From positions 1 to 55,913 of the IMG/VR virus record IMGVR_UViG_2778261121_000001: a stretch of DNA of 55,913 nucleotides, one strand, 5' to 3'. Positions 14,216 to 38,474 of the stretch are shown here, piece after piece. The notes beneath the pieces are model-generated. The model saw only the letters and a program-made list of their open reading frames with translations. It did not search any database and was not told the origin of the DNA. This DNA is from a virus (taxonomy: Duplodnaviria > Heunggongvirae > Uroviricota > Caudoviricetes). Numbering within the stretch: the stretch's first letter is position 1; each line of letters begins with the position of its first letter. The position numbers and the translations under genes were made by a program.

Positions 14216-14830
14216 CTAATCATACTTGGAGGTATTTATCACCAGAATTTTGTTTGTATAAATCTTCTTAATATCCCATGTGACATTACCGGAATACCAT
14301 TGACCGTTATATACTTGGTTTCCAGTTGCACCTGTCATTGTTACATAGACAGGTCTGTCGTAATCGGTTCGTCTATAGTTATATACTCCAACCATAGCAG
14401 GCATTACCGCACATGGATACCCCATATCTATTGTAAATTGAGGGTCAGAAATAGTGATAAGTTTCGCATCAAGGGGCATCATCTCACCGTGATACACCAT
14501 TGCGCCTGCGCTGTTATACATGGCAATGCCATAGCCAGAATGTGGTAACACCATATCAGAAAAAGCATAAACTGTTATTGTTCCGGGGCTACCATTTACC
14601 TGATGCAATCTGAGAGCATTGTATCCGTTACTATGCTCATGAATAAACATCATGTTCGCCTTATTACTGCTTTTTATGAAAAAAAAACATGATTTGTTTG
14701 ATGGGATTGATGTTTGAAAAACAGAACCTTTAGATGTAGACATTGTCCCTTTATTAATCAGATTTTGCGGAGTAAATTCTGGACTCATCCACAAACTTCC
14801 ATCTGATTGAGTAATTGACATCCCGAACAT
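14216..14830 (-). CDS. hypothetical protein (204 aa), AT-rich cassette gene 2
   Basis: ATG at 14828-14830 with GGGGA Shine-Dalgarno 2 nt after the upstream stop; visibly lower GC than its surroundings; contains a T9 tract. Confidence 0.4.
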   Translation of the reverse strand: MFGMSITQSDGSLWMSPEFTPQNLINKGTMSTSKGSVFQTSIPSNKSCFFFIKSSNKANMMFIHEHSNGYNALRLHQVNGSPGTITVYAFSDMVLPHSGYGIAMYNSAGAMVYHGEMMPLDAKLITISDPQFTIDMGYPCAVMPAMVGVYNYRRTDYDRPVYVTMTGATGNQVYNGQWYSGNVTWDIKKIYTNKILVINTSKYD

Positions 14831-14832
14831 AA

Positions 14833-15114
14833 TTATCCCCAGTATGTGTATATGTAAGAACCAAGCCCCGTATATAAATTTGACCAACTAACCGTATTTC
14901 CATTAATAGTAACATTTGGAACAGGTAAATTGATGTAGTTGTCGTTGTTAAGAGGCATTAATGACCACACGGCATGTAGTGATTTACCCGGTGGCGGATT
15001 AGAGTACGTCTTAGAGCCTGATGACGCCGTAAATCGATCAAGAAAAAAAATAGGTGTAAGGAAGCCAGTAACGTTAATTCCTTTATTGTTGTAAATCCCT
15101 GTACCGTATGCCAT
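14833..15114 (-). CDS. hypothetical protein (93 aa), AT-rich cassette gene 1
   Basis: ORF with AAGGATGA Shine-Dalgarno; AT-rich; contains a T8 tract. Confidence 0.4.
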   Translation of the reverse strand: MAYGTGIYNNKGINVTGFLTPIFFLDRFTASSGSKTYSNPPPGKSLHAVWSLMPLNNDNYINLPVPNVTINGNTVSWSNLYTGLGSYIYTYWG

Positions 15115-15168: not shown

Positions 15169-15738
15169 TCAATTAGAGCTTTGAAAGGCTTTGTGTGGTT
15201 GTGTTGCGAGGTTATGTCGATGGCTTAACTCACGCATCATGTCTTCAAGGCGACTCTTTGTGTCGTCGAGTTGGTCGGCCATTGCTCCCAAAAGCTGACG
15301 AACGGCCATCGGATCATCGCTGTTTAGTGATGGCATTTTATAACCCGCCTGAGAAGACATAAGATTGAACGCAGACATCAACATCGTTAGAGAGGATTTA
15401 AGCCCAGCAATTTCACGATCTTTGCTGGCAATAATCGCCTCACTCTTGTTAGTGTCATCAGTTCGTTGAGTCTCGCTCACCATATCCAAAGTCGCCTGCA
15501 ACTTATCAGCGCGCTCTTTTTCAGCAAGATAATGAACACCGAAATGATGTGCTAAAGCTACAACCTGAGTTGGCTCTTCAAAGGTGGACTCAAAATTAAG
15601 TGCTGTAACCACTCTCTCAAATATGGAAACGTCTTCTATTCCTCGAAGAATGGCTAACATTTTGACCAGTTCATTAGCATCCATTTCTTCGAATAAGGCG
15701 TTTTGTTCATCAGCTATCGCTTTGCATTTCTTGCACAT
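15169..15738 (-). CDS. hypothetical protein (189 aa)
   Basis: ORF in conserved start context; 5'-leader motif at 15756-15775. Confidence 0.5.
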   Translation of the reverse strand: MCKKCKAIADEQNALFEEMDANELVKMLAILRGIEDVSIFERVVTALNFESTFEEPTQVVALAHHFGVHYLAEKERADKLQATLDMVSETQRTDDTNKSEAIIASKDREIAGLKSSLTMLMSAFNLMSSQAGYKMPSLNSDDPMAVRQLLGAMADQLDDTKSRLEDMMRELSHRHNLATQPHKAFQSSN

Positions 15739-15877
15739 GTGTTTTTCCTAATGCTTAAACAAGTTGTTTTCTTATTGGCTTTATTGTGATGTGGCATAAA
15801 AGGGGAGCAAGCTAAACGTAAAGGTGCAAACTCTCTATTTCGGTCAACGAAACACAAGGGCCATTTGGCCCTTGTCA

Positions 15878-16036
15878 TTAACACGTTGCTTTACGGACTA
15901 GCGGATAAGCGAAGTAGATCGCCAGACCAATGAGGACGCCATCAGAAATGACAGACATCATCTTTCCCGTAAAATCCACCAACACCGCCATCACCAGAAG
16001 AGCAATGACGGTCACAAGCCGGAATCTCTCAAGCAT
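15878..16036 (-). CDS. candidate small membrane protein (52 aa)
   Basis: Translated by hand: MLERFRLVTVIALLVMAVLVDFTGKMMSVISDGVLIGLAIYFAYPLVRKATC; TAATG stop/start overlap with the TerB-like gene; below track cutoff. Confidence 0.35.
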   Translation of the reverse strand: MLERFRLVTVIALLVMAVLVDFTGKMMSVISDGVLIGLAIYFAYPLVRKATC

Positions 16037-16461
16037 TAGAGATAAGCATCCAGTGACAACTGAAGCGCCTGTGCGATCTTTTTCAGTGCCAGCTCTTCTT
16101 GTTCGCCAATACCGTCTTGGTCGGCAATATCAAGGCACAGACACAGTACATCTACTGCATCATTAGTCCCGGCCACATCAGCCAGCTCACGTAAAGCCTG
16201 GGCATTAGCGCGGCGCGGTGAGGCTTCGTATTGAGCACGGATATTGGCGCTCATTTGGGCAATCTCACCAGCAAACGGAGAAAACGCAGGCAGAGCTGCA
16301 ATTGTTTTCTCAAGAATGGAAATTTCCTTTGCGTCGCATGTGCCATCGGCATAGGAGATCATGTACGCGCCCCACACGGTGGCTTCAACCGCATCTCGGT
16401 TCTCCATTTTTTTGACCTCGATAACAGCTTTACGAGTTTTCTTTTTGAATAAACCTAACAT
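16036..16461 (-). CDS. TerB-like (tellurite-resistance TerB domain) protein
   Basis: 141 aa; resemblance to TerB judged by eye over the helical core and acidic C-terminal region; 5'-leader motif at 16484-16503. Confidence 0.5.
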   Translation of the reverse strand: MLGLFKKKTRKAVIEVKKMENRDAVEATVWGAYMISYADGTCDAKEISILEKTIAALPAFSPFAGEIAQMSANIRAQYEASPRRANAQALRELADVAGTNDAVDVLCLCLDIADQDGIGEQEELALKKIAQALQLSLDAYL

Positions 16462-16554
16462 GTGCTTTCCTTTTGTTATTTGTTAAAACAAGTTGTTTTC
16501 TAGTTACATGAATTGCTTACGAAAAGACGGTCAATGCATATGCACTAACAACCG

Positions 16555-16752
16555 TCAGAAATAACCAAGTACCGAACCGACTGGAAAAACAAAAATCCCA
16601 ACAACACGAGCCAAGGTCATACCAGCCTGAAACTGGAGATCACCAGAGCAAACGAGTTTTACAATGTTCGATACCCAACCGGCGGCCATGAGAGCTATGA
16701 AAGCCAGAATCGCCAGCCAAGTTTTTCCAAAGTGATTTGAAAACCAGTTCAT
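16555..16752 (-). CDS. small membrane protein (65 aa, two hydrophobic helices)
   Basis: ORF in track; stop/start overlap with the upstream ORF. Confidence 0.4.
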   Translation of the reverse strand: MNWFSNHFGKTWLAILAFIALMAAGWVSNIVKLVCSGDLQFQAGMTLARVVGIFVFPVGSVLGYF

Positions 16753-17000
16753 ACAACCGCCTTAGTCACAGCATGATCCTGAGTAACTGGATGAACTTGA
16801 GGTATCGCATCCACCGTCATCCCATCCAGAGTGACAGGACGCTCTACTGGAGTGGTGGTAATTGTCGTCGACGGAGGTGTGGTGATGGATGAACCCGGCA
16901 TCAAAAGGCTCTGGCCGGCTGGAACGGCTATCGTCGCCAGTGAAACTATAATGAGAACGTAGGCCATTGGTTTCAGCCTCTTTCTTTGAAAATTTTCCAT
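16749..17000 (-). CDS. membrane/secreted protein (83 aa, N-terminal hydrophobic segment, Pro/Thr-rich)
   Basis: ORF in track; embedded in a different frame within 16762..17256. Confidence 0.35.
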   Translation of the reverse strand: MENFQRKRLKPMAYVLIIVSLATIAVPAGQSLLMPGSSITTPPSTTITTTPVERPVTLDGMTVDAIPQVHPVTQDHAVTKAVV

Positions 17001-17256
17001 TCGAACTGTCCTTGTTGTTTTTCTCCTTCACTAAAGGCCGTGTACTTTTCGCTTCGCGTGAAGAACCAGAGGTAACAATCGCCCCCACGTTCGCAACAAC
17101 TGACGCTTGCTTATCTAAACGTTCATTCAGCAACCGAACGGCAGTCTCTAGTTCATCAAGACGTGACAGAACACGACCGCTAAATAATTCGGCCAAAATT
17201 TGACGTAGTGAACGAGGACGTTTAGTTGCAGAAGTGAAATAGGTTTGACGTGCCAT
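16762..17256 (-). CDS. hypothetical protein (164 aa; C-terminal half low-complexity and overlapping the 83-aa ORF)
   Basis: ORF in track; the N-terminal ~85 aa look genuine, the remainder may be overlap artefact. Confidence 0.35.
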   Translation of the reverse strand: MARQTYFTSATKRPRSLRQILAELFSGRVLSRLDELETAVRLLNERLDKQASVVANVGAIVTSGSSREAKSTRPLVKEKNNKDSSNGKFSKKEAETNGLRSHYSFTGDDSRSSRPEPFDAGFIHHHTSVDDNYHHSSRASCHSGWDDGGCDTSSSSSYSGSCCD

Positions 17257-17401
17257 GTGGACTCCATCCAGTGTCAGAAAGAGTTGCGGCTGGCGATTGC
17301 CAGCCGCCTTTCTCGTTCCATCCTGGAACTGTGTCTTACCGACACATTGTCATCCTGACGCCGATAAGATACATGATTTAAAATGATAGGTAAACACTTA
17401 C

Positions 17402-17995: not shown

Positions 17996-18580
17996 ATAAA
18001 CTCCTGAATCAAGCGCCGCGCCGATTTTTTTCCTCGCGCGTGCGCACACGCGTGCGTGTTAATAATTATTAAAATAAACAAATTACTTCCCAGAACAGGT
18101 TTTTATAAACCTGAACTGAACGAACGAAGTGAGTGAAGTTCACCTCGAACGAAGTGAGAGGTTGTCTTTTCAGGTAATACTCTCCCAGGGAGGTGAGTAT
18201 AAAAATCCCTCACCAACCTGGTCGTTTCATAACCTGAAAAGTCATGGTCTAAGTCTACTGCCAGCTTAGACTTGGGAAGTTATGGATGACAGCACCCCAG
18301 AACCGAGATCTTCCCACACTTTATGAAGGGGAGTACTGGATTCAACCTCTCGAAACACCCCAGACTCGACAATCATAAAGTGACCCTTGTCTCTGCTCAC
18401 TTTGGTTCCCCCTTCCCCGACACCTAAACGGCACCAGTTCTACGCTGGTAGTGAGCTTTTTTTAAACCTGACGCCAGTGACGCTTACCCCCACCCATCAG
18501 GTCGAGTCTCCAGTCTACGACTGGAAACTATCAGATCTTAGCACTTACAAATCATCTTATGAATAGTTTGTACTTATCTA

Positions 18581-26685: not shown

Positions 26686-26785
26686 GTGTTTTTCCTTTTT
26701 TGATGTGTTTAAACAAGTTGTTATCTTATGTGTTTAAACAAGGCTTACAAATCAAAGATAAGGTGGGGATATACCCCACCATATG

Positions 26786-38424: not shown

Positions 38425-38474
38425 GTTTTCTTATCCTTTTAAACAAATTGTTTTCTTAATAAGATAATTGCGAT

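Follow-up and report, generated by a model that had tools for sequence, protein, structure and literature searches.

A swappable tciAB cassette of an SSU5-like phage-plasmid, beside a backbone operon with a candidate dual-coding overlap

Do five small, adjacent and co-oriented genes of a tailed phage form one functional cluster, or do they belong to separate units? The question is raised by a locus on the minus strand of IMG/VR virus record IMGVR_UViG_2778261121_000001 (Caudoviricetes), of which positions 1 to 55,913 were analysed here as a whole and are called the window below. A preliminary description, made from the DNA letters, had joined a gene for a TerB-domain protein to four small membrane-protein genes in a single TerB-centred cluster, with membrane stress and defence as its likely business. 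We find two units. The first is tciAB, a coupled pair of genes that forms a swappable cassette in an SSU5-like backbone; the second consists of p164, p83 and p65, SSU5-family backbone genes apart from tciAB, with p83 lying inside p164 in another reading frame. A tciAB cassette next to a separate p164/p83/p65 operon is the overall explanation towards which we lean, and we are highly confident of the anatomy and identity of the region, including that of TciA as a soluble protein with a TerB fold.

The tciAB cassette and its slot

The 5 kb around the locus are 99.4% identical to ~110-kb non-mobilisable E. coli plasmids, and the SSU5-like phages PhiR41_1, CMS-2020a and Cyrano have 95–96% identity to the same 5-kb region; judged by these identities, the window is part of an SSU5-like E. 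coli phage-plasmid. In Cyrano, a fully annotated relative, the region sits inside a long co-oriented block of DNA-metabolism genes that encode the DNA polymerase III alpha subunit, RecA, ribonucleotide reductase (RNR), ThyX, Dam and RNase H. The features of the locus are as follows, with lengths in amino acids (aa) for each open reading frame (ORF):

17286-17307, minus strand: GC-rich hairpin between rnhA and p164, 9 pairs, 8 of them G-C
17256-16762, minus strand: p164, 164-aa ORF, matches PHROG 10411
17000-16749, minus strand: p83, 83-aa ORF in the +1 frame inside p164, matches PHROG 15659
16752-16555, minus strand: p65, 65-aa ORF, matches PHROG 6006
16483-16503, minus strand: palindrome copy before tciA, from the motif scan
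16461-16036, minus strand: tciA, 141-aa ORF of the TerB family
16036-15878, minus strand: tciB, 52-aa ORF, DUF3927
15854-15875, minus strand: GC-rich terminator-like hairpin after tciB, from the hairpin scan
15754-15773, minus strand: second palindrome copy, before p189, from the motif scan
15169-15738, minus strand: p189, flanking backbone gene, 189 aa, matches PHROG 5508

The interval between p65 and p189 is a slot whose content changes from relative to relative. In the E. coli and Klebsiella relatives tciAB fills it; SSU5, the S. Typhi and Enterobacter elements and a further element from E. coli have a Rha/Ant antirepressor gene there, and in two Citrobacter plasmids the slot is empty. Whatever the slot contains, p164, p83, p65 and p189 are present in all SSU5-like relatives examined, and the ~80 nucleotides (nt) upstream of p189 are conserved alike in tciAB-bearing, Ant-bearing and empty-slot elements. 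The pair also occurs without this backbone: among the 80 closest viral contigs with tciA, 36 are SSU5-like and 44 lack the p164/p83/p65/p189 genes entirely. In every one of the 80, the tciA stop is shared, over 1 or 4 nt (TAATG or ATGA), with the start of a DUF3927 ORF. The 52-aa DUF3927 gene is the sole constant partner of the TerB gene, and the 164-, 83- and 65-aa genes are kept when the slot holds Rha/Ant or nothing; the proposed five-gene cluster does not survive this comparison.

The cassette is delimited by the palindrome and a ribosome-binding site at its 5' end and a hairpin at its 3' end (16503-15854). This hairpin begins 3 nt past the tciB stop, has 9 pairs (6 of them G-C) and is followed by GTTTCGTT; a similar hairpin lies 3' of tciB in Klebsiella. 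The hairpin at 17286-17307 is likely the upstream boundary of the p164/p83/p65 unit.

TciA is recognisably a TerB protein. It scores 29.3 bits against Pfam TerB (PF05099; gathering cut-off 24.4) over residues 33-136 and matches PHROG 632 'tellurite resistance' at E 2.8e-62. A profile of 9 TciA homologues, reaching down to 35% identity, matches K. pneumoniae TerB (2JXU) at E 2.6e-13 in a full-length alignment, residues 15-137 onto 21-145, and 2OU3 at E 6.6e-4; the family profile was required because a PDB search from the single TciA sequence did not reach 2JXU and returned only chance EF-hand-like matches. The AlphaFold2 model has six helices and a mean confidence (pLDDT) of 91, and its best PDB match in Foldseek is 2H5N (probability 1.0, TM-score 0.53-0.60), which we take to be a TerB-like structure. 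The preliminary description had named a failed profile search as what would overturn its TerB assignment of 16036-16461; the Pfam score above threshold, the PHROG match and the 2JXU alignment bear the assignment out.

Seven residues of TciA are invariant among its homologues: R22, D23, D39, G40, E46, G117 and E122. For D39, G40, E46, G117 and E122 this extends to homologues of only 35% identity; D116 varies little among close relatives, and both of the acidic 'aDG...E' motifs of TciA are conserved. The N-terminus, MLGLFKKKTRK here and M-F/L-G-x-F-K-K-K-x-R-K in its conserved form, is basic and hydrophobic and may resemble a membrane-binding peptide of that kind. The gene is under very strong purifying selection, with a ratio of nonsynonymous to synonymous divergence (dN/dS) of 0.03-0.06 and saturated synonymous sites. 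Recent horizontal transfer was considered as the cause of the high identity of TciA (90%, vs 40-50% for its neighbours) and rejected because of this saturation, the synonymous divergence (pS) being ~0.7.

TciB matches Pfam DUF3927 at 47.4 bits (cut-off 25, E 1.9e-12) as well as PHROG 1470 'TciB-like', shows two transmembrane (TM) segments by hydropathy and has a dN/dS of ~0.24. The tciA stop and the tciB start have base 16036 in common (ctcTAATGctt), and the Shine-Dalgarno sequence of tciB itself is weak; the TAATG coupling of the TerB gene to a 52-aa membrane peptide, noticed earlier, is confirmed. A single TerB-DUF3927 fusion protein was seen (P0082), which could come from a 1-nt sequencing error. 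Beyond SSU5-like elements, tciAB occurs in P1, P7, lambdoid phages, an N4-like Salmonella phage, jumbo Erwinia phages and one Pseudomonas phage, and strictly virulent phages are among its carriers. The presence of the pair at this locus is not news, since near-identical records already carry the public annotations 'TerB family' and 'DUF3927', and Cyrano 'P1 TciA-like' and 'P1 TciB-like'.

Several side observations concern the pair elsewhere. Pseudomonas phage Nican01 has an unannotated 60-aa ORF with two TM segments and a GTG start directly after its TerB gene (1935-2117 of the extracted locus), and this ORF shows the TciB-like pattern LIDS...S..ADGFL...WPLIKK. In the Vibrio N4-like phage vB_VpaP-MS02, a TerC-family gene lies immediately upstream of the TerB homologue and there is no DUF3927 gene (378-1926), a hint that TciB and TerC are perhaps alternative membrane partners. 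Additionally, phage tRNA genes (Asn, Thr, Gly, Arg, Ile) are recurrent neighbours of tciAB, at distances up to ~2.5 kb, in P1, P7, lambdoid and jumbo phages and in 19 of the 44 non-SSU5 viral contigs; the 55,913-nt window has no tRNA genes.

Among known systems, phage P1 (Punavirus P1; AF234172) comes closest. Its TciA also has 141 aa and is 83-85% identical (85% over residues 1-123, 83% overall), its tciB likewise encodes a 52-54-aa DUF3927 peptide whose start overlaps the tciA stop, and in both elements the two genes are neither core structural nor replication genes. The surroundings differ, however: P1 has a third gene, tciC, where the present element has a hairpin 3 nt past tciB and then p189 as the next ORF; the P1 copies lie within the C1-controlled ban operon between tRNA genes, whereas here an SSU5-type palindrome precedes them and backbone genes of the DNA-metabolism block flank them; and TciB is only 38% identical. 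Lambdoid moron copies (CharmingMan, JLK-2012) have the same coupled pair in a variable accessory slot, with TciA 86% identical, but they are late, pR'-Q-driven, often beside tRNA genes and without the SSU5-type palindrome. The TerB of terZABCDE operons (2JXU; PF05099) shares the all-helical fold, the two 'aDG...E' motifs and the full-length profile alignment; in contrast to those operons, tciA here stands without terZ, terA, terC, terD and terE, and it is paired with a hairpin peptide of 52 aa where they have the multi-pass TerC.

Overlapping frames in p164, p83 and p65

The preliminary description had also placed an 83-aa ORF inside another frame of the 164-aa ORF, and this stands: p83 occupies 17000-16749 in the +1 frame. 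We regard p83 as very probably a genuine gene. An AAGGA Shine-Dalgarno sequence lies 8 nt upstream of its ATG; its frame has a dN/dS of 0.3-0.8, with 36/27/48 variable sites at the three codon positions; and its stop overlaps the p65 start (ATGA) in all clades, as GTGA in Klebsiella. The protein (peptide PVTLDGMTVDAIPQVHPVTQDHAVTK, for example) is composed of a basic N-terminus, one TM segment in which changes between clades are conservative, a variable proline/threonine linker and a conserved LDGMxxDxIP C-terminus. The gene is not annotated in RefSeq/PGAP, SSU5 or Cyrano. In Klebsiella phage pJN2-26, the p65 homologue is likewise unannotated (3515-3327 of the extracted locus, with a GTG start over the p83 stop).

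Whether the overlapping part of p164 is also translated into a selected protein is a harder matter. Purifying selection acts on the N-terminal half of p164 (~85 aa; dN/dS 0.2-0.5), which is helical and charged; the C-terminal half, which overlaps p83, is rich in serine, histidine and cysteine, and its tail includes the peptide SCHSGWDDGGCD. Dual coding of the overlap is likely, because the p164 frame stays open in 39/39 distinct sequences from five clades. Its stop always falls 13 nt before the p83 stop, and the probability of an open p164 frame, given the p83 protein and the codon usage of the element, is 0.02-0.19 per clade. The synonymous divergence of p83 is lowered (pS ~0.5 vs 0.73-0.88 in p65 and p189 and 0.59-0.77 in the N-terminal half of p164), and at certain islands the nucleotides are fully identical and each frame encodes a conserved peptide, NGLR with PMAY and SGWD with LDGM.

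The competing view takes only p83 as real and p164 as a gene of ~85 genuine codons with a read-through tail that is under no selection. Within the overlap the p164 frame has a dN/dS of 1.06-2.3, against 0.3-0.8 in the p83 frame; the tail is low in complexity; and rare natural variants truncate it or shift it into the p83 frame, so that it may be dispensable. These points weigh against dual coding. The variants include 168-aa proteins in which p164 residues 1-117 are fused to the C-terminal half of p83 by loss of one T from the T4 run at 16906-16903 (minus strand), and others are recombinants with their breakpoint exactly at the p83 start (variant and recombinant proteins P0132, P0135, P0138, P0128 and P0133). 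Given these breakpoints, the conserved island at the p83 start may be a module boundary. Set against the constant position of the p164 stop, the low chance of openness, the depressed pS and the identity islands, a read-through tail is distinctly less probable than a selected one, though not a negligible prospect.

Programmed frameshifting from p164 into the p83 frame was rejected: p83 starts from an ATG of its own with a Shine-Dalgarno sequence in front of it, and no canonical slippery site was found in the appropriate frame. Searches with tblastn for p83 and for the N-terminal half of p164 returned the same 12 SSU5-like phage records only, with no independent occurrence outside them from which to tell the older frame. 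By these searches the p164/p83/p65 trio appears restricted to SSU5-like elements.

The third gene, p65, is conserved in all clades and has two TM segments; from its start overlapping the p83 stop we infer that it is translationally coupled to p83. Hydropathy gives two TM segments each for TciB and p65, one for p83 and none for p164 and TciA. The topology suggested earlier for the 65-, 83- and 52-aa products agrees with these counts, and of the 'four small membrane-protein genes' three remain (TciB, p65 and p83), since p164 is soluble by hydropathy.

Small membrane proteins in overlapping frames invite comparison with lysis genes. The likeness to Rz/Rz1 is that a small proline-rich envelope protein is read in the +1 frame from within a longer same-strand gene that encloses its frame completely. 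The spanin assignment of p164/p83 was rejected: p164 has no hydrophobic segment, and hence no N-terminal TM domain, p83 has no cysteine and hence no lipobox, and the actual holin, endolysin, Rz and Rz1 of the family lie elsewhere in the genome, at CYRAN_22 to CYRAN_25 in Cyrano, far from the tciAB region. A holin assignment for p65 was likewise dismissed, with Phage_holin_4_1 at 14.6 bits against a cut-off of 22.2 (E 0.036); its C-terminus is a hydrophobic ...GSVLGYF, not the charged hydrophilic tail expected of a holin. The p164/p83/p65 operon is not the lysis cassette.

A palindrome shared across the element

The leader motif that had been noticed before the TerB gene is real and non-random. 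It is the palindrome ctaGAAAACAACTTGTTTTAA at 16483-16503, which ends 21 nt before the tciA ATG; the pattern AAAACAACTTGTTTTAA, with up to 3 mismatches, has 8 matches in the window vs 0.31 expected, and none of 100 shuffles reached 8. Copies of AAAACAAnTTGTTTT in the window lie at 1437-1504, 15754-15770, 16483-16499, 26708-26724 and 38438-38454, usually preceded by ...ATAAG and 13-45 nt upstream of co-oriented start codons. Cyrano has 12 exact-core copies, 20-45 nt upstream of co-oriented starts, in front of the genes for the terminase small subunit, parA, helicase and RNR beta, tciA, p189 and several hypotheticals; counted by genes, about 11 co-oriented ones across that genome have the palindrome before them.

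The copy before tciA is conserved in Klebsiella relatives and in 36/36 SSU5-like viral contigs, and the palindrome is absent from all tciAB loci in other phage types (44 non-SSU5 contigs). As it is found only on SSU5 backbones, it is a feature of the backbone and not part of tciAB. The copy at 15754-15773 lies 15 nt before the p189 ATG, downstream of a conserved sigma-70-like -35/-10 pair that was read by eye from the sequences and that the consensus promoter scan did not report. Its place just 3' of this pair suggests an operator or 5'-untranslated-region element, and the palindrome is probably such an element of some regulator. A role as a -35 or MotA-box-like promoter element was discarded, as the copies lie only 13-25 nt from start codons. 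Membership of tciA in an 'element regulon', as proposed earlier, is plausible from the motif; the Cyrano genes that bear the palindrome have no common pattern in RNA sequencing (RNA-seq) of the LF82 lysogen, in which all samples are uninduced.

Other neighbouring genes deserve brief mention. Two further backbone ORFs lie 3' of p189 (223 aa and 93 aa; 14216-15114, minus strand), the 93-aa ORF being annotated 'putative outer membrane protein' in Cyrano. Between the dam methylase gene and rnhA, at ~18266-18400 of the window (minus strand), is a 44-aa ORF homologous to CYRAN_81; in the LF82 lysogen RNA-seq, CYRAN_81 stands ~12-fold over prophage background (117 vs 9.8), and it is either a small gene expressed in lysogeny or an RNA.

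Possible roles of TciA and TciB

The time at which the pair acts narrows the choice of roles. In P1, tciABC lies inside the C1-controlled ban operon (GenBank annotation), and in lambdoid phages tciAB lies between Q and the lysis genes. In LF82, a lysogen of the 95% identical Cyrano, RNA-seq of overnight cultures in lysogeny broth gives values of 7.0 for CYRAN_85 (tciA) and 5.0 for CYRAN_86 (tciB), vs 9.8 for background and 96 for the repressor (PMC9928086, S1 table; the data hold no induced sample). The pair is apparently silent in these lysogens, and it is not among the morons listed in published work on them. Together with the virulent carriers, these positions and this silence point to action in lytic growth, not in the lysogen.

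A tentative mechanism can be drawn from this. TciB would be made by translational coupling with tciA, in which case TciB and TciA are probably present at ~1:1, and TciB together with the TciA N-terminus would anchor TciA to the inner membrane on its cytoplasmic side; TerB has been reported as associated with the inner membrane and as a partner of TerC. During lytic growth, the pair would most likely condition the inner membrane by stabilising either membrane energisation or divalent-cation balance. Such conditioning might protect the infected cell from depolarising too early, be the cause a mistimed holin, abortive infection, a pore-forming colicin or superinfection. The protection of the membrane is the least secure step of the overall account, a possibility that we favour only cautiously; in the adjoining backbone operon, both overlapping frames would be translated and p83 coupled to p65.

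Three other explanations compete with membrane protection by TciAB. The one closest to the preliminary description takes the five genes as one TerB-centred membrane stress or defence cluster by which the lysogen is protected, a lysogenic conversion to phage, colicin or tellurite resistance. The genes are adjacent and co-oriented, and their Cyrano counterparts CYRAN_83 to CYRAN_87 rise jointly in one RNA-seq condition; ter operons with terB are reported to confer resistance to tellurite, pore-forming colicins and phage, and TerB domains are present in the Shango and Bunzi defence systems. Yet each unit occurs without the other: p164/p83/p65 beside Ant/Rha or an empty slot in sister elements, and tciAB in P1, lambdoid, N4-like and jumbo phages. 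No terC, terD, terE or terZ is annotated within 5 kb either side in a 99.4% identical plasmid or anywhere in the complete Cyrano genome. A PADLOC-DB v2 scan of TciA, TciB, p65, p83 and p164 gave no match at E up to 0.1, and PADLOC and NCBIfam scans of six proteins gave nothing useful. With lysogen expression at or below background, and virulent carriers that have no lysogen to protect, the earlier idea of host or lysogen defence finds no backing, and we consider this explanation very unlikely. A two-gene mobile unit that is strongly constrained, apparently silent in lysogens and carried by virulent phages makes a lytic role likelier than tellurite resistance or host defence.

A lytic role could also take other forms. 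TciAB might block host division or growth early in lytic development, like Kil, DicB and Icd: the terZAB segment of ter operons makes Y. pestis and E. coli cells filamentous (PMC4633105), P1 tciABC belongs to the early ban operon, 3' of a dicF-like region, and a P1 transcriptome preprint groups tciABC with icd and kilA, by annotation only. The filamentation, however, was mapped to terZAB jointly and the lethality to terZA, not to terB alone (PMC4633105); no connection of the TerB fold with FtsZ or the divisome is known, and we rate division inhibition as quite unlikely. The remaining proposal has TciAB tune the handling of Mn, Zn or Ca, with or on TerC-family proteins and in the service of metal-dependent phage enzymes, with TciB replacing TerC or bridging to it. 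Here the invariant acidic pairs of the TerB domain in TciA, the many metal-dependent DNA-metabolism enzymes of the element (RNR, SbcCD, nucleases) and the Vibrio phage with terC directly before terB and no tciB all fit, as do a reported TerC-TerB complex and reported roles of TerC in Zn and Mn resistance. But metal binding by the TerB domain is a prediction, the terC-terB adjacency is seen in one phage only, and a metal-related gene linked to tciAB is missing from every other context examined, which leaves metal handling unlikely.

Membrane protection by a lytic tciAB cassette has points against it as well. The tciA and tciB values in the Cyrano lysogen are near the detection floor. P1 tciA, tciB and tciC are non-essential in a CRISPR interference screen, and any phenotype is therefore conditional; the tciAB region is also variable, and often lost, in P1-like phage-plasmids. 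A physical interaction of TciA with TciB is suggested by gene coupling, its sole basis. Finally, the consensus scan found no clear sigma-70 promoter before tciA, and this, with the joint rise of CYRAN_83 to CYRAN_87, may mean that tciAB is co-transcribed with its neighbours and not independent. The condition of that rise is B1 of the LF82 RNA-seq table, where p164, p65, tciA, tciB and p189 reach log2 ~4.5-6 and later drop; the neighbours CYRAN_82 and CYRAN_88 do not change in it.

What does the locus tell us about this family of elements and its relatives? The correct unit is a two-gene mobile cassette that has spread over very different phages, virulent ones included; to the existing annotations we add the delimitation of this unit, the constraint on tciA, its likely lytic role, the unannotated overlapping gene and the family-wide palindrome. 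The palindrome fronts about a dozen genes and offers a handle on an SSU5-like regulatory circuit, and p83/p164 is a clean same-strand candidate for dual coding in a clinically common phage-plasmid family. More speculatively, and with doubt predominating, TciAB could be a counter-measure, shared by many phages, through which the inner membrane stays energised while infection proceeds. On this same doubtful reading it would block abortive infection that works by depolarisation, pore-forming colicins or a holin that triggers too early, and perhaps it would engage membrane partners in the host that belong to the TerC family or are TerB-like. If true, such a counter-measure would account for the constraint on an accessory protein that counts as 'non-essential' and yet keeps a dN/dS of ~0.03-0.06 across temperate phages, phage-plasmids, N4-like phages and jumbo phages.

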